IMG/VR virus record: IMGVR_UViG_3300048026_000549
Location: 1-62,667 of that record
Source of the DNA: a virus
Lineage: Duplodnaviria > Caudoviricetes
Reading direction: 5' to 3' (one strand)
Length of the DNA: 62,667 bases
In this document: in pieces, positions 1 to 52,294 of the stretch
How the letters are laid out: every line of letters begins with the position of its first letter
How positions within the stretch are numbered: position 1 is the stretch's first letter
Translations under genes and position numbers: made by a program
The notes under the pieces: model-generated
The model's database searches: none
What the model was told of the DNA's origin: nothing
The model's input: the letters and a program-made list of their open reading frames with translations, nothing else

Positions 1-390
1 TTTGTTGTTGCATCGAGTTGAATTACAGGTCGCCGCTATATCAAGATGGCGTTCGTCATTTTGTATTTAACATAGTTAGCCCCGAATATCGGCGTTAGGG
101 CGGCATGGGCGACCGGAATCCGAACCTCTCATGTGCGTGTACATGAGGCAGGGGCGGGCGAGTGCGTGTACGCAGGTGCGTTTAAGAAGGTTTCGTGGGC
201 GGGAGTGCACCTCATGTGCGGGGAAGTGCGCTGGAACCTACCCACATGCTCACAAATCGCCGCATTTTTACGCAATCCGTTGGAATTATGCCGAAAAGCG
301 GGGCACTTTGCCATATATAGCATGAAATCTGCCTTCACTTTGGACTTTTCCGGGTGAAAGTGGCTCTCTCCCTATGTGCATAGGCATACA
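1..390 (+). repeat. Terminal direct repeat, left copy
   Basis: Matches 62278-62667 apart from 7 substitutions found by eye (96, 100, 103, 106-108, 263). Confidence 0.95.
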
Positions 391-974
391 GGCTGAGTCT
401 TAAGACTACAAAAGGCCGATTGGACCGGAAACCACTGTTCTTGATACCTACGCACGGGTGGGTGCGCCCGCACACGAGGACTTGGGTTTTTGGGCGACCG
501 AAAAACGCTCTCCCTATGCGTGTGCGTGTGCTTTATTAGTCTTAAGACTTAGGGGGCCCAAAAAAAATAAAAGCGGCGTAAAAAAAACGCCATAGTCTCC
601 GGCCATGCGTCTTATCACTCCCCACGACGGGAGGTACTACTGTCTGTTCGTCTTTCGTTGTGAGATGGCGGTGGCTGTTGGTGTCCCGGCCAGCCTCCGG
701 GGAGTGGGTGTCACTCGGTGTCTCAAAACCCGCTTTTTGTGGGGTGTGTGCAGGGGGTGCGCGTTAGCATATTACCATGTCTATAATGGCTTACCGTCCT
801 CGCCGGTAAATCCATAATGACCAAGTGTCATTTGCATTTCCGTCCTCCTGTCCTGTGTTTGGACTGTGATGTGATGGGACCACCCCCCGCCGAAGCGAGG
901 GGCAGTCCGGCTACCCTTTCGGGAACGAGGTCTGTCTTCGACTACCTCGATGTGTGTCGGGCGTGGTTTTATAC

Positions 975-1232
975 TCACTCGATGTGGTTGCGGATAAATT
1001 CCGAGCGTGACATGTCGCCACGCATGGAGTCTATTCGGGCAAGCATGCTGACCGGCATAGAGATGCTGATTTTAACATTCATCTCAATGGCCTTGCCGTA
1101 AGCAAGGTCAAGGGCATGCTGTATTGCTTGGCTTCGACTCATGTTGAGTTCACCGAGCATTGCATCTTGGTCAGCCCGTATGCTTGCGCTAATCCCCACA
1201 TTCTTTCGTTCGTATTTATTCTTTCTTCCCAT
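975..1232 (-). CDS. Small DNA-binding protein with two ribbon-helix-helix-like repeats
   Basis: ISASI..QDAMLGELNMSRSQAIQHAL and ISISMP..MLARID..MSRSEFIR both fit the CopG/RHH pattern. ACAGGA lies upstream of the ATG. Confidence 0.7.
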   Translation of the reverse strand: MGRKNKYERKNVGISASIRADQDAMLGELNMSRSQAIQHALDLAYGKAIEMNVKISISMPVSMLARIDSMRGDMSRSEFIRNHIE

Positions 1233-1359
1233 ATTTTCATATCCTGTCCTGTGTTGGACTGTGGTCGCTGTTGGTATGCCAGTCAGCGTCTGGCCGGGGG
1301 TTGTCCCCGATTGGTTTTACCGCTCATGTTGGCGGGTATGTGTTGGGTGCGATTCAAAA

Positions 1360-1536
1360 TCAACGACGCTTGCTAATGACTAACTGGCGAACTTCATCTT
1401 CGGGCATGTGCCGTTCGATGGTCTTCCAAGTTGGGCACAAGCCACGGATAGTGCAGTTATTATCGCATTTACCGTGCTCAGTGCACCATTTGTCACAAGT
1501 GTTGGCGTACCAATTTCTTATCTGTTGTCTATTCAT
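1360..1536 (-). CDS. 58-aa Cys-rich protein (below the ORF-track cutoff)
   Basis: MNRQQIRNWYANTCDKWCTEHGKCDNNCTIRGLC..., preceded by AGGAGGT. Confidence 0.55.
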   Translation of the reverse strand: MNRQQIRNWYANTCDKWCTEHGKCDNNCTIRGLCPTWKTIERHMPEDEVRQLVISKRR

Positions 1537-1698
1537 AATTCAACCTCCTGTTGGAGTGGGTCGCTGTTGATGTCGCAGTCAGCGTCTGCGCGGGTGTCCC
1601 CGGTTGGGCGACAGCATCGTGACGCCATCTTGTGGTGTCGTGTGCCGTCCTCCGCTCGTGTTGGCGGTTATGTCTAAGGGGGTGTCCTCTCATGGGGT

Positions 1699-2169
1699 TC
1701 AGTTGTCGGGGTACAGGCCGAAGCGTGGCGGGAAGGTACCTTCGCTGAAGACATAAGCCTCCAACTCTTGCACTTCCATCTGCATCATGTCCGTGTCCCA
1801 CAACACACCGGTGCTGTGTTGCAGTTCGTTCATGAGGTTGCAGATTGACCGGGCGGTTTTGACTGCCTCGGTGCTACCCTCAGCCACCTGTTCCAACACG
1901 GCTATGTACGCTTTGTACAACGGGAGGTATGTGCCCCGGTGCATTTCTGCGTAAGCCCTGTTGCTGGGTTGCTGTCGAGGCTGTGCCTCAACGGGTTGTT
2001 CATCTGCATGCTTTGCTTCGTTCCGTGCTCGCCACTCGGCTTGACGACGGATAGAGCAGGGACCATCACAGTCCAGTGCTCCTTCACTGTCGTCGAACGA
2101 ATGCGGTTGCTCAAGGCCTCCGCATTCCACCATGTAGCAAACCCGCATTTCTGGTTCTGGTTTGTCCAT
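1699..2169 (-). CDS. Hypothetical protein
   Basis: 156 aa; GGAGGTGA RBS upstream of the ATG. Confidence 0.65.
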   Translation of the reverse strand: MDKPEPEMRVCYMVECGGLEQPHSFDDSEGALDCDGPCSIRRQAEWRARNEAKHADEQPVEAQPRQQPSNRAYAEMHRGTYLPLYKAYIAVLEQVAEGSTEAVKTARSICNLMNELQHSTGVLWDTDMMQMEVQELEAYVFSEGTFPPRFGLYPDN

Positions 2170-2349
2170 TTGTGTTCACCTCCGTCAGCCCCGAAGGGCT
2201 TGGAGTCCTGTTCTTGATAAGTGAATGTGAAGGGGGGTGGGGAGGATGGGGGCACTTGGCCCCCACCGTCCCCGTAGTACCTCTCGCATGGCGAGAGTAA
2301 GCCTTGATTGAATCAAGGGGTGTTCACTGTGTCACGAACGAAAGCGTAC

Positions 2350-5181
2350 TTAAGACCAACTGTACCATTCACCGTTGTTGTTAGCAACGATGTCATGCCA
2401 CTCCATGTCGAAGTCATCGACCATCTCGACCTTAACGGTGTCGTCGTCGAGGTCGGGGTCGAAGAGCCCTGCAAGTACCATAGCCATTGTGTCTGTGCAC
2501 ACATCGGGGGAGAAGTTCTTGCCGTCTTGCCACCGGAGTGGCAGGTCGTACTTGGACCCGTCCGGGCGGATGGCCATGTGTGATTGACCATCAAAGCCGT
2601 GGTACACTGCGTCTGCTGGCCATGACTGGTAGTACATCGCGTGGCGGGTGTTCCAGTTGGCACCGAGCATCTCGTTGTATGCGTTGTCGATTGCGTCGTT
2701 AAGGGCCATGTCGTCCCACTCGTATTGCATGAGTTGGATGGAAGCCACATTGACGGAGCCGATGGCACATGTGTCCGAGTCGCCGGTTGCTTTGGCTGGT
2801 GTCCTGTTCCACTGTGCGTATGTGCGCCAGTCGTATGACACACCTGCTGTGTCTGCACTGCCCTTGATGTGTCGGCTGGTTATCACACCATCGGGTGAGA
2901 TGGTGTACTCCTTGCCGATGGCACAAGCCCAACTGTTGTAGATGCGCTTGCCGTAGGCGTCGTGCAGATGCTTCTCAGTCGAGGCGACCACGATGATACC
3001 TGCGTCGGAGTCAAGGCGGCCCGCATGGAGCGGGTTGCCACCGTTAGTCCAGAACTTGAGTGTACCTGCTGGGTCACGAGCGTCGGACCAAATGAGGGAC
3101 ATTGAGCCCTCACACAGTTCGACCACCTTCTCGATGCCACCTGCTTCGAGGCAAGCGGCGACGGCTTGGCTGTCCACCGGACCAGTCTGTTTGGCGTCAA
3201 GCGCCTTCCAAACCGTGTCGTAGTTGTGAACCACACCGTTGTGCACGAGTGTCACATGGGCTTTGGGCCCGAAGTGAGGGTGTGCGTTGGCGGCGGTGTT
3301 TTTGCCGTGTGTCGCATACCGTGTGTGCATCATCATCCAAATGGTTGCCTTGCTGAAGTACTTCTTGAACAACTTCGGTGCAAGGGCCACACTGCTGGTT
3401 GGTGACTTTTGGTAGTACACTTCGCCATCGGTGGTCTTGAACCACGCCGCACCTGCCGCTTGGTTGCCACGGCTGGACAAGCCACTAAAGAGGCGTGTTG
3501 ATGCCTTCTTAGCGTTGTTGCCCTTGACGGAACCGGAGTGGACAAGACCGATGCCACACCCGACCAGTAGCGCCACTGCACCGATGAGAGGTGCTGTGAC
3601 AGCAAGGCCAAGCATGAACACTGCCAGTCCACCCATCTCGTAGGCGGTGGTGTGTGAGCGTGAACCCATTACAAGTTCTTCGCAACCACAGTAGGGGCAT
3701 TCCAAGTCTTCGCCATCATGTGGTGTGACAATGTAGTCGCCGGTGTCGTGTTCACTGAAGAACATCCGTAGGTAGTTGGCACTGAAGCGGTTTTCGTAGT
3801 TGTCTGCACTGAGTGAACTGCCGCAATCGTTGTTGTTGCAGTGGATGTAGGTGCTGGCAAGGTTGAGTTGGTTGTTCTCATCCAAGTTATTGAACTCTTG
3901 GAGAGCCGCCGCTCGGTCAATGAAGACCTCGCACTCACCGTGTACGCAGTGCGTTGAGCCGCATAGCACACACGCTGTTGTTGGTATGCCATGTAGCACG
4001 ACTGCTCGCTTCTCGTAGTAGTCACGGATGTGATGGTCCACTTCAAGGTCCATGAAGGCCCACATTGCGTCACGGGTGTTTGGTAGGTCGTCAAGCGAGA
4101 AGAAACCGAGGTAGTTGGTCTCGTCTTCGCAAGCCGCCACAAACCGTGTACAGAACTCGACCCAACGGCTGATTTTCATTGGGTTGACTGTGCCTTGATG
4201 TGCTCGGAACTCGATGGTACCGAATCCACGGGCAAACATTGACTTGAGGTTTAGGTGCTGGTAGCGTCCATGACCGGAGTGCCAGTCAAAGAGGTAGTGG
4301 TAGTGTTTGTCACCTGTGTGCTCAATCATCTCGTACTCGTCCGTGACATGGTTGTATGTGCGTCGTGTGTGCGAGGTGGCTGTGAAGACCATCTCACTTG
4401 GATGCATGTCCGGGTCGTGCAGATTGTGGGCTTGTGCGTACTGGTTGTCCCACCGGGATGATGGGAAAATCTTCTTCAAGTCGTGGAAGAAGAAAGACCA
4501 TGCGTATGCTACTCGTCCACCGATTGACTTGGCTTCGTCGTGCGACATCACACCATTGTCCCCAAACATTTCGTTGGGTTTTCTTAGTGCGACATGTGCG
4601 TGTAGCCCAGTCGTGGTGTTGATGCGGGCAATGGCTCGCAAGGGTTCTACTGTTTCAAGAATCCAAGCGGTCACTTCTGCCGGGGCAAGAGGTGGTGAGA
4701 CCACCTCGAAGCCGCCACTGCTGAGTGAACCATCCGTGGTGACACGGGTGATTCCGCCGGTGGTGCGACCTGCCATCCACTCCGAGGACTGGTGCGTGTG
4801 GTTGGTCTGCTCCGTTGGCTGTTCCACTGACCGAAGGTAGGCCCGCCGAGCGGCACGAGTTCGTCGTGCTTTGGCATTTTGACCTTGTACGAAGGACAGG
4901 AAGCGTTTGAAGGCCCCCGGTGCGTCTTTCGCTTTGTGAAGATTGAGCCAATGGGCTATCTTCTGGTTCGGTGCAGATTCAGCGTGTGCTTTGCGGATGG
5001 CCTCGATTTCGAGCCCGATGCCGTACATCTTGGTAGCGCCTACTTGTGCGTACTGCTTTCGTTCGTTCTTTCGCTGGACAGATGCGGATAGTATGGTAGC
5101 GGCCATGAGTACAAGTACCCAGCCCATTGCCAATACGAACCCGAGTCCGTCTGCTTCGTTCATCATTTGTGCGTTTTGCAT
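2350..5181 (-). CDS. Membrane-anchored putative amidoligase (COOH-NH2 ligase type 2) fused via Zn-finger/TM linker to a class II (Ntn) glutamine amidotransferase
   Basis: Ligase motifs GLEIE, TTDGSL, FEVVSPPL, TGLHAHV, RYQHLN, GTIEFRAHQGT. GATase-II motifs CGIG, HTRYATHG, NAHPH, VHNGVV, DSQ. AGGAGG places the start at 5181 rather than 5307. Confidence 0.85.
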   Translation of the reverse strand: MQNAQMMNEADGLGFVLAMGWVLVLMAATILSASVQRKNERKQYAQVGATKMYGIGLEIEAIRKAHAESAPNQKIAHWLNLHKAKDAPGAFKRFLSFVQGQNAKARRTRAARRAYLRSVEQPTEQTNHTHQSSEWMAGRTTGGITRVTTDGSLSSGGFEVVSPPLAPAEVTAWILETVEPLRAIARINTTTGLHAHVALRKPNEMFGDNGVMSHDEAKSIGGRVAYAWSFFFHDLKKIFPSSRWDNQYAQAHNLHDPDMHPSEMVFTATSHTRRTYNHVTDEYEMIEHTGDKHYHYLFDWHSGHGRYQHLNLKSMFARGFGTIEFRAHQGTVNPMKISRWVEFCTRFVAACEDETNYLGFFSLDDLPNTRDAMWAFMDLEVDHHIRDYYEKRAVVLHGIPTTACVLCGSTHCVHGECEVFIDRAAALQEFNNLDENNQLNLASTYIHCNNNDCGSSLSADNYENRFSANYLRMFFSEHDTGDYIVTPHDGEDLECPYCGCEELVMGSRSHTTAYEMGGLAVFMLGLAVTAPLIGAVALLVGCGIGLVHSGSVKGNNAKKASTRLFSGLSSRGNQAAGAAWFKTTDGEVYYQKSPTSSVALAPKLFKKYFSKATIWMMMHTRYATHGKNTAANAHPHFGPKAHVTLVHNGVVHNYDTVWKALDAKQTGPVDSQAVAACLEAGGIEKVVELCEGSMSLIWSDARDPAGTLKFWTNGGNPLHAGRLDSDAGIIVVASTEKHLHDAYGKRIYNSWACAIGKEYTISPDGVITSRHIKGSADTAGVSYDWRTYAQWNRTPAKATGDSDTCAIGSVNVASIQLMQYEWDDMALNDAIDNAYNEMLGANWNTRHAMYYQSWPADAVYHGFDGQSHMAIRPDGSKYDLPLRWQDGKNFSPDVCTDTMAMVLAGLFDPDLDDDTVKVEMVDDFDMEWHDIVANNNGEWYSWS

Positions 5182-5212
5182 TTTTGTTCCTCCTGTTTTT
5201 GGGGTTGTCCTG

Positions 5213-6134
5213 TTGCCTTTTGGGACTCTCGATATGTTGCCCCAGCAATCGGGGCTCGAGCCTGTCTTTGGTCGGTCAGTGTCCGGTGATGCAGGGTGAG
5301 GGTACAAGCCTCGGGTTGTTTGTATCGAACCCTGCTGGTGAGTAGGAAAGGTGGAGGGGTATCAACGCCTACCGGTACTTTGGCGCATCGGTGTTGGCTC
5401 AAGGCCATCGGCTACTCCCCCCCACTGTGCTATCTTCACAGGTTGATGTGAAAGAACGAATGTTCGCAGATATGACTCGCTACCGATGGGCTGATTGGCT
5501 CGACTGAAATCCTCGTCATATCCGCTATGTGCACCTTAGCCTAAGACCCACGGACTTTGACCCCGCTTCGACATCGAGTGTTCAACACTCTATGCACATC
5601 CCACCCCGGTGCCTCTTTCGAGGCTCAGTCCCTGCTTCAGGCCCGACTCACTGCATTGCGTATCTTTGCACTCGAGGGATAGGTTGGTTTTTGGGTGCTT
5701 GCGACTGCGAATCAGTCACTCCCAATCGCCGGTTTATCTCGAGTCACTCTTCTGTCCCCCGGCACGGTTGTGCCATCGGAAGAGTGCGGCGCCATCTTTA
5801 CGATGTCTTATGGCTTGGTTATTTTCGCCACTCCCGCTTGCATTTCCGGTGATTATCCGTACTTTGCGAATGTCTGTGAGTTATCGACCTCCGTCACATC
5901 TCAGCAAGGCATCTTCATGGATGCCCGAGCCACGAATCCGTGAACTGTCTTTGACCGACTGCTTTGTCGAGTGTGAACTTTGGTGGGTTCCGTTTGGTTG
6001 TTCGCAAGGGCATTTTCCGTAGAATAGCCGCCACGATGTGTCGCATGGACACTTGTCCCCCATTAGGAACCGCCGCCGGTTCCCACTGCTGAGGGCCTAT
6101 ACTTCTTCGGCTCGGGTCGGTACTTCCCAAGCAA
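5213..6134 (-). ncRNA. Candidate large (~920 nt) structured ncRNA or structured leader
   Basis: No credible ORF. More than 12 helices, ends pair with each other, and a TTTAAG box lies ~24 nt upstream of the 5' end. Confidence 0.65.
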
Positions 6135-6195
6135 AGTGAACATAGACCCCACGACCTTAAACCTGTCGGTCCAAAAAACGCTGTACTGAGAGCCT

Positions 6196-6215
6196 GACCC
6201 TATCATGATAGGGTC
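6196..6215. promoter_or_regulatory. Perfect 20-bp palindrome, operator candidate
   Basis: GACCCTATCATGATAGGGTC lies between divergent transcription units. Confidence 0.55.
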
Positions 6216-6417
6216 GTCCGTTCACAAGAAAATCAAGGGCGGACAATCGGCCAAATGTCCCAAAACAGCCCAAAAACGGCCATCCGGCGATTGAGAGGGG
6301 CCGCCGGTCTCGCAGTACAGCGTTTAGGCCGTTGGAACATACACATTGATAAGCATCCACGATGTGGCGAAACACATGCCGGAGGCGTTGCATTTGGACT
6401 TTCACGACATGAGAAAT

Positions 6418-6604
6418 CTCTCTCCCAAGAGTCCTCGTGGCAAAGGGGAAGTACCTAAGACTATTGTATAAGACAACGCCAAGCACTCTCTCCCCAGCGC
6501 ATTTTCATTTTCTAATGACGCAAGCACGGCGGCAACACTGGCGGCAAATCCAACCAAAATTCAAACATCGCTGGCTTGATATATGACCATGCATTGGGAA
6601 GGGC
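6418..6604 (+). repeat. Regulatory cassette repeat, copy 1
   Basis: TAAGACT; CTCTCTCCCCAGCGCATTTTCA (6486-6507); CGCTGGCTTGATATA (6569-6583). Confidence 0.8.
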
Positions 6605-7186
6605 ATGGACGGACACCAATTCCCAACCCTAAGCCTAACTGACAAATTGACCCAAGCCGACAACGGAGGTGAGTTCATGGCTAAGGTGAAAGCGCAATAC
6701 GAAACGCTTCAACACCAACTCGATAACACCTCACCGGAACTACTCGGAAACCGAGCCTCAAACCACTACGGAGCAGTCAAGCGAGTCAAGACCACACCAG
6801 CAGTGAAGAAGTTGATGATACCTCGGGACTCGAAAGGCAACCGCTCAACGAGCCGTCAAGTCAATGCAAAATCGTACAACGAATCAACATGCAAATGGTC
6901 CCATGTTGAGACATCATTCAAGCGCACTGTTGAAGTTCAACCAAAGGTCGAGGAAGTCATACCTCAACGGAACTGGACAGTGTACCGGAATGACCGAGTG
7001 AGTGAGAACATCATTGAGACATTGGCAACGCTTGAGCAGTTCCTCGACGACAACGGCGAGAACATCACCGCTGAGTTCCGCACCATGTACTTCGACCTTG
7101 AATTGTGCCGACAGCGCAACTGTCCCCGATGCGATGCAATAGGCCTTCAAATTGCACAGGCTCATGAAGCCAATGGAAACCGGTGA
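6605..7186 (+). CDS. Hypothetical protein with C-terminal Cys cluster
   Basis: 193 aa; ATG 21 nt after TTGATATA. Confidence 0.75.
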   Translation: MDGHQFPTLSLTDKLTQADNGGEFMAKVKAQYETLQHQLDNTSPELLGNRASNHYGAVKRVKTTPAVKKLMIPRDSKGNRSTSRQVNAKSYNESTCKWSHVETSFKRTVEVQPKVEEVIPQRNWTVYRNDRVSENIIETLATLEQFLDDNGENITAEFRTMYFDLELCRQRNCPRCDAIGLQIAQAHEANGNR

Positions 7187-7220
7187 ACAGGCCGGTTGAA
7201 GCCTAACCAATGGGAGCGAT

Positions 7221-7240
7221 TCCCAGCCTTCGGGCTGGGA
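7221..7240 (+). terminator. UUCG hairpin after ORF
   Basis: TCCCAGCC-TTCG-GGCTGGGA; terminator role inferred from position. Confidence 0.5.
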
Positions 7241-7266
7241 CTCCCAGCGGCTCCGGCGGAGGCGGA

Positions 7267-7492
7267 TTCTCTCTCTCTCTCCCTCGCCGGAGGCATTATT
7301 TTGCGTAAGACTTACTTACTATACTGCGTCGAACTCTCTCCCCAGCGCATTTTCAATTTATACGAGCATCCCCCCGAAGGTGGCTGAGGCTGGCAACCAA
7401 GCCCATCGCTGGCTTGATATAGGGGACACCTCCCATGTCGGAATAACCGACGAAACAAACGAAGCAGTCGGCCTAACAGGAGATGAAAAAAT
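7267..7492 (+). repeat. Regulatory cassette repeat, copy 2
   Basis: (CT)n tract, TTTGCGTAAGACTT, core 7334-7355, CGCTGGCTTGATATAG, RBS AACAGGAGATGAAAAA. Confidence 0.85.
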
Positions 7493-7726
7493 ATGCAAAA
7501 GATAGAATGCCCAACACCTGCCCAATTCGCAGTGCTGTTGAAGATTGAACAAAACACGGGGCTTGATGAAATGCGAGTGGCTATGGAACGAACAGGGATG
7601 ATTGTAGAAGGTCGCCCCCTCTTCGGTGAAGATGAGAAGTTAATGCGCCGGTTCCGGTCGTCGCTTTCGTACTTCGCCACACGATACCCGAAAGTCGTTG
7701 CCGAACTTTACGCAATGAACGCTTGA
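7493..7726 (+). CDS. Hypothetical protein
   Basis: 77 aa; RBS and cassette promoter upstream. Confidence 0.7.
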   Translation: MQKIECPTPAQFAVLLKIEQNTGLDEMRVAMERTGMIVEGRPLFGEDEKLMRRFRSSLSYFATRYPKVVAELYAMNA

Positions 7727-7809
7727 ATCCGGTAAGCCGGAGATCAAAATATAAACCGGAATAGTCGCAGACAGGTTCCGTTCCCACTCAACGATGGTAG
7801 CCAACAACC

Positions 7810-8048
7810 CGTCGCCCTTCGGGGCGGCGGTTCTCTCTCTCTCCCTCCCAGCGCAAGCATTGTTTTGCGTAAGACTTCGTTAATACAATACCAGCATTTC
7901 TCTCCCCAGCGCATTTTCAGTATATACGGCCGTCCCCCACTGAGTGGGGCAAACAGCCCGAGATTGGCTTCGCTCCGCTGGCTTGATATAGGAGAGTGCC
8001 TTAGCATGGATAAGTCGCACAGCGACAACACAAACAGGAGATGAAAAA
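7810..8048 (+). repeat. UUCG hairpin plus regulatory cassette repeat, copy 3
   Basis: CGTCGCCC-TTCG-GGGCGGCG, (CT)n, TTTGCGTAAGACTTCGTTAATAC, TCTCTCCCCAGCGCATTTTCA, CGCTGGCTTGATATAG. Confidence 0.85.
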
Positions 8049-8426
8049 ATGAGAAAAGAACTGAGAATGAAACCGGTAATGTTGGCGGTCCTATGGGCCT
8101 TCATCCAAGACCAGTGCAAGAGGCAAAAACCGATAGAATGGATGATGCAGGTAATGCACCTCGCTATCGAGGACTGCCAACGCCGAAACCTCATCTTGAG
8201 GGACCGAGCAACAGCCGAGCGAGTTGGCCGTAGAGCCATCATCGCTATGGTGAAGTTAGATGATGCCAACATCCACAGCATTATGGAAAGCGCTGACCGA
8301 TACGCAAGGTTGGAAAAGAAGTTGTACGAAGCCCGCAAAGACTTGGAAAGGCTCGGCATGGGAGTCCACAACACGGACAACCTACGGACTGACATCAACC
8401 CGCTCAACCGACGAAACCACGAGTGA
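8049..8426 (+). CDS. Hypothetical helical protein
   Basis: 125 aa; same RBS as the copy 2 gene. Confidence 0.7.
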   Translation: MRKELRMKPVMLAVLWAFIQDQCKRQKPIEWMMQVMHLAIEDCQRRNLILRDRATAERVGRRAIIAMVKLDDANIHSIMESADRYARLEKKLYEARKDLERLGMGVHNTDNLRTDINPLNRRNHE

Positions 8427-8488
8427 GTGAGTAGTCAGAAGCAACAGTCAACACCAGTCCCCTACGGGGGTCAATAGCCGCCTTCGGG

Positions 8489-8715
8489 CCCGCTTCGGCG
8501 GGCTCGATTGGCCTTCGTTCTCTCTCTCTCCCTCGGGGCGAAGCCATATATTTGCGTAAGACTTCGTTAATACCACGAATGAATCTCTCTCCCCAGCGCA
8601 TTTTCATTTAACACGGGTGCCCCCCGCAAGTATGCTGATGGTCCCTCGAGGCCCGCTTCAGCGGGCTGGGGTTCCCACCACCACCATTGATATAGGAGTG
8701 TGCCGTAGGAGTGGC
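8489..8715 (+). repeat. Hairpin plus regulatory cassette repeat, copy 4
   Basis: CCCGC-TTCG-GCGGG, (CT)n, TTTGCGTAAGACTTCGTTAATAC, core motif, TTGATATA 8687-8694. Confidence 0.85.
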
Positions 8716-9015
8716 ATGGACGGAGAACCCGAACCTACGAAGCCCGAGGAACAAACGACCCTACTATGCACCGAGGAATGGTGCGTTGCCTGTGGCAACT
8801 GTGACTTCCCAGTGAGTCACAAAGCACAGGGACTATGGAAGACCGAAGAGGTACTTGACGAATGTTGGGAATGCGAAGAAGAAACAGATGAACCAATGTC
8901 TTGCAGTGACTGTGGAATTGAAGCCCACTGCCCCGACTGCTGGACGACCTGTGGTTGCGATGTTGGCGACCTTGCCTACGATGCAATGATGGACGACATT
9001 GGAAGTGGTAACTGA
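8716..9015 (+). CDS. Acidic multi-CxxC zinc-binding protein
   Basis: CVAC, CWEC, CSDC, CPDC; leaderless ATG 21 nt after TTGATATA. Confidence 0.7.
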   Translation: MDGEPEPTKPEEQTTLLCTEEWCVACGNCDFPVSHKAQGLWKTEEVLDECWECEEETDEPMSCSDCGIEAHCPDCWTTCGCDVGDLAYDAMMDDIGSGN

Positions 9016-9344
9016 TGATGCCAATAGACCAAGCACTGCTTGAACTCGCTGTGTTGACCGCTGTGGTATGGTTCCCATACGCAGACACCTACAACTACAT
9101 CTGCGAACTGCTCGACAAGGATTGAGCACCCCTCAGCGACGACGGCGCAACGGTCGAGAGCCGAACCCTTCCCCGCCTCGGCGGGGTTGGGTTCTCCCAC
9201 CAGTGAGATGGCCTTTACACTGAGGATTTCACGCCCGCCAAAAACACAAAGACTATGGTATATTGGGACAGCCAAGCACCACGCGAATTTTTGGCAAATT
9301 TTTTTTGGAAACATTGATAAGGTGGCGACCATACCATACAGAAC

Positions 9345-10712
9345 ATGGACTTCCAAGCCATCATCAGCGAGCATGACCCTAATGACTTCACATCCCGTAT
9401 GCAATTTGCCCGGCATTTGCACTCACTGTACCCGATGGTATCAGTGAAGGGTTGGGAGATGCGACTCATTCGGGCGGTATCTTCGGGTAAAGTACAGGGA
9501 AAGAACTCATACGAGTATGACGAGACCACCGATACCTACACAACGCACCTAACGGGCGTACCTGTTGTCAAGACTGGGGAAGAACACCGTAGCATGATGC
9601 TTGATTGGTCCAGTGGCATGTCCACCAGTGAGTTCTGTGTCAAGCACAACATACCGGAGATGCGGGCACGACAGTACCGTCAAGTTCACAAAATGACTCG
9701 GCACTCAGTCCCCGTGACAGATGAGCAATTGTTTGAGGCAGATGAACAGGATGGTCTTGTCGAAGAAATCCTTTCGTCCCGACGACAGACTCTCATGACC
9801 GAGATTGCTAAGAAAAAGCACAAGCAGTTGGTCAAGGACTCCAACAACTGGCAAATTCTCAAGTACGACTACTTGGCGCACATGGTGTCACTACAAAAGG
9901 CACCTAAGTCCGTGCCTAAGTTGAGCCTAAAGAAAGCAAAGAACCCATACGCTCTTGTCGTATGCCCTACTGATTTTCACTGGGGTAAGTACGGTTGGGT
10001 CGATGAGGTGGGAGAATCCTACAATTTTGAGGAAGCAAGGAAGCGACTCATGGAAAAGACCGAAACACTTGTGTCTCGTATCTCGACCAAGCCCGAGAAA
10101 ATCTTTGTTGGCGCTGGGTCCGATTGGTTCCATGTGGACAATGATGCTGGGCTCACGACCCGTGGTACGCCACAAGACATGTGTGCCACCCCTGCTGAAA
10201 TCCTTATCACCGGGTGCAAGTTGGCCCGTGAGCACATTGACATGCTACGACAGGTTGCTCCTGTTGAAATCGTTATGATGGCTGGTAATCACGACCGTCA
10301 CTCGTCCCTTGCGCTAATGATGTACCTATCTGCCGCATACGAGAATGTCAAGGATGTCGAAATAGTTATCACGCCAAACAACCGGCGCTACATCGAGTAT
10401 GGCAACACTATCCTCGGCTTCACTCACGGAGATGGACTTGGTAAGACTGCACTCGGTCCTCTCATGGCTGTCGAGGCTCGTGAGATGTGGGGCAACACCG
10501 AACACAAGATTTGGTTCCACGGCCACCTACATCACCAGCGAATGCACGAGAAGGATGGGTGCCTTATTATCCAAATGCCATCTCTCGCCGGTCACGACCG
10601 CTACCATGCCCGCTCCGGGTACACTACCAGCAAAGCAGGGCTTGCCGCATACCTTATCGACGACAAAGAGGGCTACATCGGCTCACTCTTCGCACCAGTA
10701 TCTCACGAGTGA
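9345..10712 (+). CDS. Calcineurin-like metallophosphoesterase with N-terminal HTH-like region
   Basis: DFHWG, SDWFH, GNHD, THGD, GHLHH motifs. Confidence 0.85.
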   Translation: MDFQAIISEHDPNDFTSRMQFARHLHSLYPMVSVKGWEMRLIRAVSSGKVQGKNSYEYDETTDTYTTHLTGVPVVKTGEEHRSMMLDWSSGMSTSEFCVKHNIPEMRARQYRQVHKMTRHSVPVTDEQLFEADEQDGLVEEILSSRRQTLMTEIAKKKHKQLVKDSNNWQILKYDYLAHMVSLQKAPKSVPKLSLKKAKNPYALVVCPTDFHWGKYGWVDEVGESYNFEEARKRLMEKTETLVSRISTKPEKIFVGAGSDWFHVDNDAGLTTRGTPQDMCATPAEILITGCKLAREHIDMLRQVAPVEIVMMAGNHDRHSSLALMMYLSAAYENVKDVEIVITPNNRRYIEYGNTILGFTHGDGLGKTALGPLMAVEAREMWGNTEHKIWFHGHLHHQRMHEKDGCLIIQMPSLAGHDRYHARSGYTTSKAGLAAYLIDDKEGYIGSLFAPVSHE

Positions 10713-46847: not shown

Positions 46848-47744
46848 CTATTCTGCCAATCGGCGGCAGAAATCCCACACAACATAGTGCTCATCCACAC
46901 CACTCAACAAGTCCCGTTGGGCTTGTGTAGCGGCATCGACCAACAGCAATTTGCTTTGGCTTTTGGCTGGAGATGAAACACCGTATTGGAATACAGCGTC
47001 TATGGTTCTGCGTAGGTTGTCTTGGCCCATCAACTTAACGGCTTCCTCGACCCTACTTTCCTTGATACACAGTGTTAGGATGCGAGCCGCATCGACCACT
47101 GGCTCCGAGATGGAGCGGAGGAATTGTCCTCGAGCATCGGGAGAGATGGAGTGGTAGGCTTGTAGTGAATTGATTGCGTTGCGAAGGTCGCCCTTGTTAG
47201 CGGAGATGATGGCATCCAAGTCCTCACTGCTTGTAGTGAAACCTTCGGCGGCATCGACCTTGTGTAGTCGGAAAAACATCTCGGAATCTGTGAGAGGTTT
47301 GAAGTGTCGGACTTGGCAACGAGATTGTAGCCACGGTGACAACTTGCTTAGGTCATTGCAGGTGAGAATGAAGTAGCCTTGAGCGCCTTCAATAACACCC
47401 TTGAGAGCCGACTGTGCGGCGGGAGTTAGTTGGTCTGCTTCGTCCAAGAAGTAAATGGTTTCCCATTGACCAAGACGAGTCATAGGTGCCAGTTCCTCTT
47501 CGATGAACTCGATACCACGCTGTCGCTTAGACGACGCATTGTACATGTGGATGTGATAGCCAAGTTGCGTGGCGAGTATGTGTGCGAGACTGGTCTTACC
47601 TGTACCCGCCTCAACAGAATAGAAGATGTAGTGTTGCATTGGCTTGCCATCGAGGATGCCCTCGAACTCCGATGCAATGTGTTCTTGACCCATGAACTCA
47701 TTGAGAGTAGTAGGTCGGTGCTTGGTAGCCCATACTTGCTTCAT
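46848..47744 (-). CDS. rfcS: Replication factor C small subunit (clamp loader)
   Basis: WATKHRP, GTGKTS, NAS..RGI, LDEAD, QSRC, GDLR. Confidence 0.95.
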   Translation of the reverse strand: MKQVWATKHRPTTLNEFMGQEHIASEFEGILDGKPMQHYIFYSVEAGTGKTSLAHILATQLGYHIHMYNASSKRQRGIEFIEEELAPMTRLGQWETIYFLDEADQLTPAAQSALKGVIEGAQGYFILTCNDLSKLSPWLQSRCQVRHFKPLTDSEMFFRLHKVDAAEGFTTSSEDLDAIISANKGDLRNAINSLQAYHSISPDARGQFLRSISEPVVDAARILTLCIKESRVEEAVKLMGQDNLRRTIDAVFQYGVSSPAKSQSKLLLVDAATQAQRDLLSGVDEHYVVWDFCRRLAE

Positions 47745-48374: not shown

Positions 48375-48755
48375 TCATTCCCACACCACCATTCCGTCAG
48401 CGTTAGGTTTGATTTGCGGGCCCAAGTGACCACCAAAGAACACTCCATCAGCAATGTATGCCCATGCGTTGCGGTCGGTACTGTTGTGCATTTGCAGTGC
48501 GATTTGCTCACGAGCGTACATGCCGACCTCAACACCTTCGAGGGCGTCCACTCTATCAAGAGCCTCATCGGAGATGGCCCACACCTCACCAAACACCTTA
48601 TTATCCCCAAGCATCATGGCGGGGAAGGCACCAACACTATGAAGTTCAGCGCCATAGGTGTTAGCGTAGTCCACGAACTCAGCATCAGCGCCGAGCACAT
48701 GGTGGTTGTAGTGTCCTTTCTTGAGAGTGCCGTACACAAACACAGTGTGTTTCAT
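48375..48755 (-). CDS. Gamma-glutamylcyclotransferase (AIG2-like)
   Basis: VFVYGTLKKG..NH, FPAM, VFGEVW, DALEG, AWAY. Confidence 0.9.
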   Translation of the reverse strand: MKHTVFVYGTLKKGHYNHHVLGADAEFVDYANTYGAELHSVGAFPAMMLGDNKVFGEVWAISDEALDRVDALEGVEVGMYAREQIALQMHNSTDRNAWAYIADGVFFGGHLGPQIKPNADGMVVWE

Positions 48756-48793
48756 GCTTCGTTCATCATCTCGTGCGTCGTGTGTTAGTGTCT

Positions 48794-49462
48794 TCAAATC
48801 CATTGTATTACCTTCTGTTGTGTTTTGTTTTGTCCTTTCGGAAGTGCTTGGTTGTCGTTAATGCGAATCTCATTCGTCACAACGATGTCATTGTTGACAA
48901 TGATGTCCAAGTGTTTGTCTGTTCTTCTCATACCGCTCGGCAGTATATAGTCACTGCGCTTGCTCTTGGGTGGCCACTTGAAGCCACGGACAGGCACAAT
49001 ACCATAAGCGATTGCGGCACGAGTATAACTGTCATGTAGTGTGAATTTGCATCGAGCCAATAGCCTACCGAAGCCAATGTCATTGACATTGACCTTGATG
49101 AAAGCGTTGGCGAGAGCAAGGGGAATAGGAGAGAGGGCACTGTGTGCACGGTCACGGTCAGCCCAGCATAGGGCGGCTCGCATCTTGCGGGAGAAGTCTT
49201 CCTTCGCTACTCGAGAGCGTTGGTCCACGATAACACAATCATCACTCTTCTTGGTTAGCCGTGGCATCTTACTACTCACGACCACCATGCGATGTGGTAC
49301 TACCTGCGCCCAGTACAGGGCATCGCTCTCAGTGAACTTGTCCGTGTGGAAAATGTAGGTGGTGTTTGGTTGGGTGGGGGAGATTGTCATTTGACCGTAC
49401 ATAACGAAGTAGTCCCCGGTGCGGTATTGTGTGTCGTCTGTTGTGAAAATTATTACTCCCAT
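48794..49462 (-). CDS. Hypothetical protein
   Basis: 222-aa ORF within the replication operon. Confidence 0.6.
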   Translation of the reverse strand: MGVIIFTTDDTQYRTGDYFVMYGQMTISPTQPNTTYIFHTDKFTESDALYWAQVVPHRMVVVSSKMPRLTKKSDDCVIVDQRSRVAKEDFSRKMRAALCWADRDRAHSALSPIPLALANAFIKVNVNDIGFGRLLARCKFTLHDSYTRAAIAYGIVPVRGFKWPPKSKRSDYILPSGMRRTDKHLDIIVNNDIVVTNEIRINDNQALPKGQNKTQQKVIQWI

Positions 49463-50950: not shown

Positions 50951-52294
50951 TCATTGTTTCACCTTCTGTGCGTCGATTTGGATTTTGGCTTGCGGGTACC
51001 CAATGATACACGACACTCCCTTCCGACCCCGACCGGTCTTTGTACTCCTTTCTTCATTAAACCACGGCTGTATTTGTAGGTTGTCCTCAATCCACCGCTT
51101 GGCAGATTGATAATCACCGTTGGTAATCATCCGTGCTACTTCTTTGATAAGGTTGGAGCGTGACATGGCTTGGTTCCAAAACGCTGTCTTGATGAGCCGT
51201 AGGTCGGCATCCATCACAGTGCGGCGCATGTCCAAGCAACGGTCGAGAATGGCTCGGAGTTGAGCAGTCATTTCGATGTGTAGTATGTCCCCTCCCTTGT
51301 AGTAGGGGGACATGATAGCGTAGCCGAGGGCCATGCGACGGAACAAGTCGGCCTCGTGGCTACGGACTTCGGGGCGGAACAACCATTCGTTGAACTCGTC
51401 GTCGAAGCGGAGAGAGGTAGGTGGGTTGGTGATAACCTCAAGAGCACGGTCAGTAAAGAAGTTGCGAATATCATCAGCCATGCCAACGAGTTCGGCTCGC
51501 TCTTGAGGGCTCATGCTTGCTTGCTTGGCCTGTGCCATCTTGAACAGGCGTTCCTTCTCCGGGTTCATCTCGATGTCGATGATAAAGAATCGTCGGTCAA
51601 GACCGGACTCCATCTCAAACCGAGCCGGTTGAGTACCTGCCCACAGTGTGTAGCGAGTGGTGTACTCGACCCAGCCAGCCCGCATGACCTTCTTGACCCG
51701 ACCATTGTCGGTGGAGGTCAGCAGTTGATTCTTGATGTCGGTACTGTGTTCCTTCTTACCAGCATCAGTGATGGATGAAAATTCCTCGAACCCGAGGAAT
51801 CCACCACACATCTCACGAGCGAGAGGACGGCCCATGATGTTCCCGTCTTCGTCAACCGAGCCGAACATACCTGCTTCGGTGATAGAGTTGGGGCCGATGT
51901 CGGTACGGAAGCCCATACCTATGTCAGCGTTGAGTGCGTTGGCAAGCAACCCTGTGCGTGGACTCAAGAACAATTGAATTAGCACAGACTTACCGGACCC
52001 CTTCATACCCCGCATGAGGATATGTAGTCGGGTGTCTGCTACATGGGACATCGGTGTGTAGATTGGTGCGCTATCGTGGCGCAGTATGCAAGCGTCAATA
52101 GCGAAGTCCTTTTCTTCCATAGGGATGAACGGGCAGGTACCGCACTTGTTGAGACCATTGAAGATGTGAGTACCGATGGAACACAGGAAGACTGGCACCT
52201 TGTCGGCCACATCCACATAGTGGTTGCGCTCAACATATTCGGTCATGGCCTTGAAGATGTCCACGGTATCAACCCCACATTCCTTGAGGTGCAT
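50951..52294 (-). CDS. MCM-like AAA+ replicative helicase
   Basis: GMKGSGKS, SITEAGMFGSV, FEEF, GTQP, SGLDRRF; lacks a long N-terminal domain. Confidence 0.85.
   Translation of the reverse strand: MHLKECGVDTVDIFKAMTEYVERNHYVDVADKVPVFLCSIGTHIFNGLNKCGTCPFIPMEEKDFAIDACILRHDSAPIYTPMSHVADTRLHILMRGMKGSGKSVLIQLFLSPRTGLLANALNADIGMGFRTDIGPNSITEAGMFGSVDEDGNIMGRPLAREMCGGFLGFEEFSSITDAGKKEHSTDIKNQLLTSTDNGRVKKVMRAGWVEYTTRYTLWAGTQPARFEMESGLDRRFFIIDIEMNPEKERLFKMAQAKQASMSPQERAELVGMADDIRNFFTDRALEVITNPPTSLRFDDEFNEWLFRPEVRSHEADLFRRMALGYAIMSPYYKGGDILHIEMTAQLRAILDRCLDMRRTVMDADLRLIKTAFWNQAMSRSNLIKEVARMITNGDYQSAKRWIEDNLQIQPWFNEERSTKTGRGRKGVSCIIGYPQAKIQIDAQKVKQ

Follow-up and report, generated by a model that had tools for sequence, protein, structure and literature searches.

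What occupies the long gap upstream of the amidoligase gene in a marine tailed virus? The window analyzed here, which is the whole stretch of 62.7 kb of a virus record with a completeness rating of 98%, encodes terminase, portal, a family B DNA polymerase, a metallophosphoesterase, an RFC-like AAA+ protein and a GGACT enzyme, together with a fused amidoligase/class-II glutamine amidotransferase (amidoligase-GATase, hereafter the ligase) on the minus strand. The ATG of the ligase gene and the first credible gene on the other side (plus strand, start at 6605) are separated by 1.4 kb (1423 nucleotides, nt) of average GC content that contains only short open reading frames (ORFs) of at most 137 aa. 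A first-pass annotation had proposed that the minus strand of this gap encodes a new, large and structured non-coding RNA that begins ~24 nt past a TTTAAG box and extends up to the ligase gene. Covariation in two clades, a lack of coding signal, strand-specific loops, a promoter box, RNA-library contigs and the lack of any match in Rfam 15 bear this proposal out and identify the minus strand of 5207–6134 as belonging to an RNA family not described before, whose large structured members are built of several domains and occur in a group of marine, probably archaeal, tailed viruses. A large RNA thereby comes to light in viruses with archaeal-type promoters and replication genes, and it is present in ocean RNA libraries. 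Few richly structured RNA classes approaching 1 kb are known beyond ribosomal RNA and introns, and the known unexplained ones among them (GOLLD, ROOL, OLE, raiA and others) are all bacterial.

Conservation and fold of the non-coding stretch

Relatives were gathered via the ligase, yielding 27 proteins, 6 viral loci and the best 80 of 385 metagenomic relatives; scanning viral contigs with the single ligase protein gave no match, whereas alignment-based scans did retrieve relatives. The entire 1423-nt gap is conserved at 87–91% identity in 12 loci and still at 79.6% in L017, where the ligase protein is just 59% identical. Identity of the RNA part exceeds that of the ligase DNA in all seven comparisons made (93.4% versus 82.8% in L011, 81.2% versus 66.5% in L017). 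Variable sites sorted by position modulo 3 are distributed 173/191/176 over the gap and 103/122/106 in the RNA part, hence without codon periodicity and as the first-pass proposal of a non-coding stretch implies, whereas mismatches in the neighboring ligase gene, taken as a positive control, display a clear third-position excess (for example 125/92/270 and 95/69/195). Close relatives moreover differ within the RNA by 1- and 2-base insertions or deletions and by gain or loss of whole hairpins. Given the missing 3-base periodicity, the small indels and the hairpin insertions, the minus strand of 5207–6134 is therefore non-coding. A protein-coding gene concealed by an unusual genetic code, frameshifts or introns could invoke the longest ORFs of the 5213–6134 stretch (137 and 107 aa on the plus strand; those on the minus strand reach 71 and 60 aa), but the same periodicity contrast and indels speak against it and all six frames are closed in the conventional genetic code, leaving this explanation a negligible probability.

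The fold was derived with RNAalifold from nine window-clade sequences (alignment A2), in which the RNA part corresponds to columns 347–1335. Over the full gap, 339 pairs are predicted, 44 of them compensated. In the consensus of the RNA part, 98.0% of cells are paired compared with 94.5% in shuffles, and 38 of 243 pairs are changed on both sides compared with 14.2 (standard deviation 2.5) in shuffles, none of 500 shuffles reaching 38; slid controls yield 1–5 such pairs, and the covariation score is 0.133 versus 0.069. A second, independent alignment of eight RNAs of distant clades (55% mean column identity) gives the same picture, with 49 of 101 pairs changed on both sides versus 32.0 in shuffles (0 of 500), 12–19 in slid controls, and a covariation score of 0.442 versus 0.190. 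Both consensus structures derive from the very alignments in which the pairs were counted, which flatters these counts; the slid controls and the second clade nevertheless make chance an unlikely explanation.

The internal helices that had been drawn on the single sequence largely reappear in the consensus. Thirteen of 16 coincide with consensus helices, and double-sided changes affect one or more pairs in 10 of them, namely the long helices 5745–5752/5779–5786, 5670–5676/5738–5744, 5527–5533/5593–5599 and 5469–5476/5515–5522, and the local hairpins 6066–6083, 5908–5925, 5761–5774, 5703–5717, 5239–5255 and 5611–5624. The other three (5291–5297/5329–5335, 5576–5590 and 5435–5452) are invariant or deviate by unpaired cells only. 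Two long-range helices, 6087–6093/5900–5906 and 6001–6007/5864–5870, are broken in 2–4 of the nine sequences and were rejected, while a third, 6109–6116/5924–5931, is paired in 72 of 72 cells and practically invariant, so that covariation is uninformative about it. The ends of the RNA are indeed complementary, UUGC (6134–6131) and UUGGGA (6130–6125) to GCAA (5216–5213) and UCCCAA (5225–5220), and the TTTAAG box is found where it had been placed (6156–6161, minus strand). The end-to-end closure proposed from this complementarity is thus possible, but it competes with covarying hairpins at 6110–6132 and 5207–5226. Coordinates of the domains are collected in Table 1.

Both ends of the RNA follow a plan that persists while its stems change. 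In every clade, the 5' end consists of UUGCYU, a hairpin with a clade-specific stem, and then GAGCCGAAG, which reads GGGCCGAAG in L040 and L041 and GACCGAAG in L006 and L031. Compared by eye, the distal stem of the first hairpin is wholly different by clade (CUCC/GGAG, AUCC/GGAU, GAACAGU/ACUGUU or CCC-GCAA-GGG), and the terminal hairpin likewise presents stems GGC/GCC, GCGC/GCGC, GACU/AGUC or GUUUC/GAGAC around a conserved AGGCAA. The position of AGGCAA within a covarying hairpin loop speaks against a promoter function. Downstream of the terminal hairpin follow an A/C-rich linker, the Shine-Dalgarno sequence and the ATG.

Searches against Rfam 15 returned no match at the gathering score, neither in the whole window nor in the loci of 12 relatives. 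At E values up to 10, five weak unrelated matches appeared in 5100–6700 (best E 0.9); at E up to 5, positions 1–10000 of the window gave three unrelated ones, and at E up to 0.5 seven relatives gave none. The models covered include GOLLD, ROOL, OLE, HEARO, group I/II introns, RNase P, riboswitches, and twister and other self-cleaving ribozymes. The RNA accordingly stays as unmatched as it had appeared to the first-pass annotation, with no hit to GOLLD, ROOL, OLE, HEARO, RNase P or the group I/II introns.

Table 1 Positions of the RNA, its domains and adjoining features (window coordinates unless a locus is named; helices numbered as in the consensus)
Feature	Position	Strand	Details
Structured non-coding RNA	5207..6134	-	~930 nt; 243 pairs in 43 helices, 38 pairs with compensatory change
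TATA-like box TTTAAG, candidate promoter	6156..6161	-	invariant in 9/9 A2 sequences
5' motif UUGCUU and first hairpin GCUUGGG/CCCGAGC	6110..6134	-	helix 1, 100% paired
Conserved motif GAGCCGAAG after first hairpin	6105..6113	-	at most 2 changes in representatives of all clades
Two-hairpin domain	6038..6095	-	helices 3-5; 7 pairs changed on both sides
Hairpin GCCUC-GAAA-GAGGC, GNRA loop	5611..5624	-	helix 25; U-A to G-U in L017; GAAA on minus strand only
11-bp helix closing branched domain	5466..5525	-	helix 31; 4/11 pairs changed on both sides, 100% of cells paired
Three-way junction with 71-nt ultra-conserved module (5353-5423)	5351..5425	-	helices 36-39
Invariant 14-bp helix	5291..5335	-	helix 40; all 14 pairs constant, covariation neither for nor against
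Hairpin CUCGAG...CGAGAG and inner stem	5228..5260	-	helices 41-42; 2 pairs changed on both sides; inner stem remodelled in L017
Terminal hairpin GUCC/GGAC, conserved loop AAAAGGCAACA	5207..5226	-	helix 43; C-G to U-A in L017
Shine-Dalgarno AGGAGG of ligase gene	5189..5194	-	within A/C-rich unpaired linker
Fused amidoligase / class-II glutamine amidotransferase gene	2350..5181	-	943 aa; Pfam Amidoligase_2 4.8e-11, GATase_6 2.8e-14; ATG at 5181
Short leader RNAs of other loci	L041:3478-3872; L040:2402-2947; L006:3593-4016; L007:~3155-4000		same 5' plan, covarying hairpin before ribosome-binding site
Conserved upstream block, probable control region outside the RNA	6162..6480		motif AAACGCTGTACTGNGAG at 6309-6325 (minus) and 6175-6191 (plus)

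Strand, promoter and transcription

Helices are mirrored on the opposite strand, and RNAalifold applied to each strand accordingly gave similar numbers of compensated pairs (43 versus 50). Loops are more telling. In 12 representative RNAs, GNRA or UNCG loops account for 36 of the 245 hairpins with four-base loops on the ligase strand, compared with 19 of 392 on the antisense strand, and this enrichment indicates that the RNA is read from the minus strand. One covarying hairpin in the distant clade has the loop GCAA, GUGA or GCGA.

At nine loci measured by eye, the TATA-like box precedes the conserved 5' motif of the RNA by 18–21 nt. Its sequence is TTTAAG in the window, L005, L027 and L040, TTTATA in L041 and L007, and ATATAC in L003, L004, L023 and L036; a constant position with a differing sequence is what a promoter predicts. 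A T6 run (6173–6178) is located just upstream of the box, whereas from 6172 to 4470 the sense strand contains no run of four or more T residues, the next one lying at 4469 inside the ligase gene.

Metatranscriptomes offer a further view of this region. Six runs contain 9–14% of the sampled words of the stretch, and four of them, from four studies, were compared over 2000–9500; their contigs give no strand, true ends or level and may include DNA carry-over, so that contrasts in depth and the 5' end are no more than hints. Together they cover 5170–6122, and in two runs they are deeper than the flanks. Run X18 yields a single 967-nt contig at depth 31.3 on 5170–5664, 5831–6029 and 6092–6122, with two variable parts replaced and its end at 6122, while ligase contigs in the same run reach a depth of just 2.8–3. 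In X16, contigs on 5432–6054 have depths of 17–61 and an ATG-bridging contig (4915–5342) has depth 6. X19 contributes a contig on 5831–6107 that terminates at 6107, and X15 one on 5562–5824 at 100% identity. None of the runs compared has an RNA contig on 6123–6500, although contigs cannot establish absence. The lack of a T-run between 6172 and 4470 and the contig bridging the ATG suggest a single transcription unit for RNA and ligase, and co-transcription of the two is likely.

These features lead to a model of how the RNA is made. Transcription would start ~20 nt past the archaeal-type TATA-like box at the conserved UUGCUU and run without an intrinsic stop into the amidoligase-GATase gene, the leader ending in a hairpin ~12 nt before the ribosome-binding site; all three steps are strongly inferred. 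With a promoter upstream and no intrinsic stop before the gene, the RNA would therefore be made as the leader of the ligase transcript. Taken together, a new RNA family and its transcription as the ligase leader are propositions that we hold with high confidence.

Linkage to the ligase and possible roles

How widely the RNA accompanies the ligase was followed with profiles of three clades, which match upstream of the ligase and on its strand in 39 of 48 loci (L002–L049), many of the matches being sequences on which the models had been trained, or duplicates of these. Matches that are independent or reach across clades include L005, L022, L027, L029, L036, L048 and L049. Nine loci were missed: six without upstream DNA, L007 and L042, which represent a single contig and show the same layout by eye, and L044, an unexplained miss. 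In L050–L087, which are distant and mostly partial ligase matches, none of 38 loci gave a profile match, which is no proof of absence, and the distant-clade profile did not match in the window. The link between clades is drawn from h1 profile matches, a shared 71-nt module, the layout, and motifs read by eye. The RNA accompanies ligases that are only ~40% identical (~35–40% in the short-form loci found by profile) and is single-copy in the window genome. From the UUGC motif to the ATG, its length is 941–966 nt in the window clade and 1093–1236 nt in other clades, with short natural forms of ~395–845 nt in L041, L006, L040 and L007 that share the 5' plan when compared by eye. The existence of natural short (~400 nt) and long (~1200 nt) versions points to a core, and the short forms help to define a minimal one.

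The 71-nt module retains 84–94% identity where the ligase is ~40% identical (L005, L027, L022, L036–38, L029 and others) and is near-identical across clades whose flanking RNA defies alignment. It is replaced in L004, L031, L003, L023, L026 and L033, and sister lineages differ in it (present in L036, missing from L023, L026 and L033). Either every base of the module is constrained or the module moves by recombination. Its exact pattern is absent from 185,579 prokaryote genomes, and an exact 32-nt pattern taken from it occurs in only two viral contigs, both already known; the loose pattern TTGCYTN{8,30}GAGCCGAAG hits more than 116 stretches in viral contigs, judged to be chance matches.

What such a leader does is the less certain part. 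The folded leader may form a stable RNA body in its own right, persist longer than the coding part and work with the membrane-anchored enzyme, a step whose odds we place somewhat below even. It could serve the enzyme as scaffold, partner or autoregulatory binding platform, by analogy with OLE RNA, and the 71-nt junction module would be where a conserved protein or RNA docks. The full explanation, combining a new RNA family, a ligase leader and a stable body that works with the enzyme, comes close to an even proposition but falls just short of it. In its strictest form, the RNA would be an obligate partner of the amidoligase-GATase in a viral membrane ribonucleoprotein of marine archaea, acting as scaffold, substrate carrier or catalyst; this is unlikely, yet if true it would be the first large functional RNA machine from an archaeal virus.

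OLE RNA of Bacillota provides the precedent. The ole gene lies directly upstream of oapA. Like the window RNA, OLE is large, highly structured and tied to a membrane protein (OapA and other membrane partners), and it is described as localized to the membrane through a protein partner in the portions of the reports available (PMC3413148, PMC12265935). The window RNA differs in that it does not match the OLE models, is viral and probably archaeal rather than bacterial, measures ~930–1240 nt against ~600 nt, and neighbors an amidoligase-GATase instead of OapA, the link with the enzyme being one of genetic linkage.

Several observations weigh against the explanation as a whole. Besides the flattering pair counts and the limits of the contigs given above, folding is better than in shuffled sequence, as the first-pass annotation would have it, but only modestly so (z-score −2.23 on the minus strand, equalled or bettered by none of 20 shuffles, and −1.23 on the plus strand, equalled or bettered by 3 of 20). 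With lengths ranging from ~395 to 1236 nt between clades, large parts of the fold must be expendable, as would suit a regulator no less than a partner. Placed in the open A/C-rich linker, the ribosome-binding site points to neither mechanism. Inside the amidoligase domain (4831–4878, ligase residues ~102–117), many but not all homologues keep an arginine-rich insert (KARRTRAARRAYLR and variants); it was considered as an RNA-binding arm and dropped, as some RNA-linked ligases have it and others do not. Finally, counts of G-U versus A-C in helices (33 versus 32 and 83 versus 60) leave the strand undecided. The last point, along with very well conserved DNA and an adjacent block at 6162–6480 that resembles a DNA-level control region, could be read as favoring a DNA element, such as a replication origin, a packaging site or a regulator-binding array. 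A DNA site, however, has no need for compensatory changes that preserve 38 pairs across 43 small helices, and the one-sided enrichment of tetraloops, the substitution of unrelated hairpins at equivalent positions in other clades, the uneven cover by RNA-library contigs relative to the flanks and the average GC content render this explanation very improbable.

A purely cis-acting giant leader deserves more weight. Such a 5' untranslated region would sense a metabolite, a host factor or temperature and set the translation or stability of the ligase mRNA. Structured leaders such as riboswitches, T-boxes and phage translational operators likewise lie on the same strand directly upstream of their gene and end beside the ribosome-binding site, and the RNA described here is always found in this arrangement, with a hairpin adjoining the ribosome-binding site in all clades regardless of length, and with no terminator or evident second promoter between RNA and gene. 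The large variation in length suggests a small functional core, and pairing of the conserved AGGCAA loop of the terminal hairpin with the conserved 5' UUGCYU, to which it is complementary, could act as a switch. On the other hand, UUGCUU is already paired in the first hairpin in 9 of 9 sequences (helix 1), and the ribosome-binding site is not visibly sequestered in its linker. With ~0.9–1.2 kb and 43 helices, the RNA is also several times larger than any known leader or riboswitch, more branched, free of any known aptamer or Rfam riboswitch match, and devoid of a visible alternative terminator or anti-terminator; leader contigs at 5–10 times the depth of ligase contigs add weak evidence in the same direction. 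We consider a role confined to cis regulation rather unlikely.

Conversely, the RNA might act in trans as an independent viral RNA of the GOLLD/ROOL type, for instance a self-assembling particle or a host-factor decoy, and merely share the ligase promoter. Its size and ornate fold fit this type, the ultra-conserved 71-nt module is swapped as a unit between clades, and RNA-library cover is deeper than over the neighboring gene. GOLLD and ROOL of bacteria and phages are similarly very large, ornate and carried by viruses, and the available parts of the reports on them give their function as unknown, so that large viral RNAs without an assigned role do exist in bacterial phages (PMC12286853, PMC5737381). 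The window RNA matches neither model even at E values up to 10, has no tRNA genes nearby, carries an archaeal-type promoter and is fixed as the leader of one enzyme gene: all profile matches lie upstream of the ligase and no copy apart from it was seen, although the search for free-standing copies was weak. A trans-acting RNA of this kind thus appears distinctly unlikely. Any role other than partner, cis regulator or independent RNA is left with a small residual probability.

The locus offers a concrete, testable way into the function of a giant viral RNA and into that of the amidoligase-GATase systems of phages and viruses. In vitro production of the transcript and of the soluble enzyme domains is feasible, so no cultured host is required.

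Host, upstream block and neighboring genes

No account of a large RNA from archaeal viruses turned up in the literature searched. Among the auxiliary genes of Vyasavirus, a study of Poseidoniales viruses names amidoligase, GATase and metallophosphoesterase, and in the available portion of its text the words 'noncoding', 'ncRNA' and 'intergenic' do not occur (PMC11706807); the ICTV profile holds nothing further on RNA (PMC13108676). Because the gene set is the same and the promoters are of archaeal type, a Poseidoniales-type host is plausible on genomic grounds. No close DNA relatives of the window were found among named phages. The best match of the ligase to named phages is 32% identity over 25% of its length, and the terminase is equally distant from bacterial phages and haloarchaeal viruses (22–25% identity to both), so that no named relative or host can be deduced.

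The conserved block at 6162–6480 probably acts at the DNA level, as a regulator-binding region for divergent promoters that is separate from the RNA; its motif arrangement suggests as much. The two AAACGCTGTACTGNGAG copies are inverted in the window and direct in L022, L036 and others, and the motif is also found upstream in L006. Within the block, they flank a palindrome, CCCTATCATGATAGGG at 6198–6213, and T-rich runs. When 2200–6500 was scanned, all ligase-strand runs of at least four T residues fell in 6173–6276, except the one inside the gene, and this cluster may insulate against read-through from upstream. In L006 (560–3050), upstream of the leader region, long stretches rich in (GA)n recur three times or more, a GGGCCGAAGCCC hairpin following each of them.

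Elsewhere in the window, the replication block contains a GGACT/AIG2-like gamma-glutamyl cyclotransferase (2e-21; 48375–48803) and the RFC-like AAA+ clamp-loader protein (46848–47744). The cyclotransferase could use amidoligase products as substrates, as suggested elsewhere in the first pass. The ORF at 50951–52294, taken for an MCM at that stage, has no Pfam match. Four plus-strand cassettes of small genes each follow the same ordered repeats, CTCTCTCCCCAGCGCATTTTCA and then CGCTGGCTTGATATA, at 6469–6613, 7317–7426, 7881–7995 and 8568–8724.

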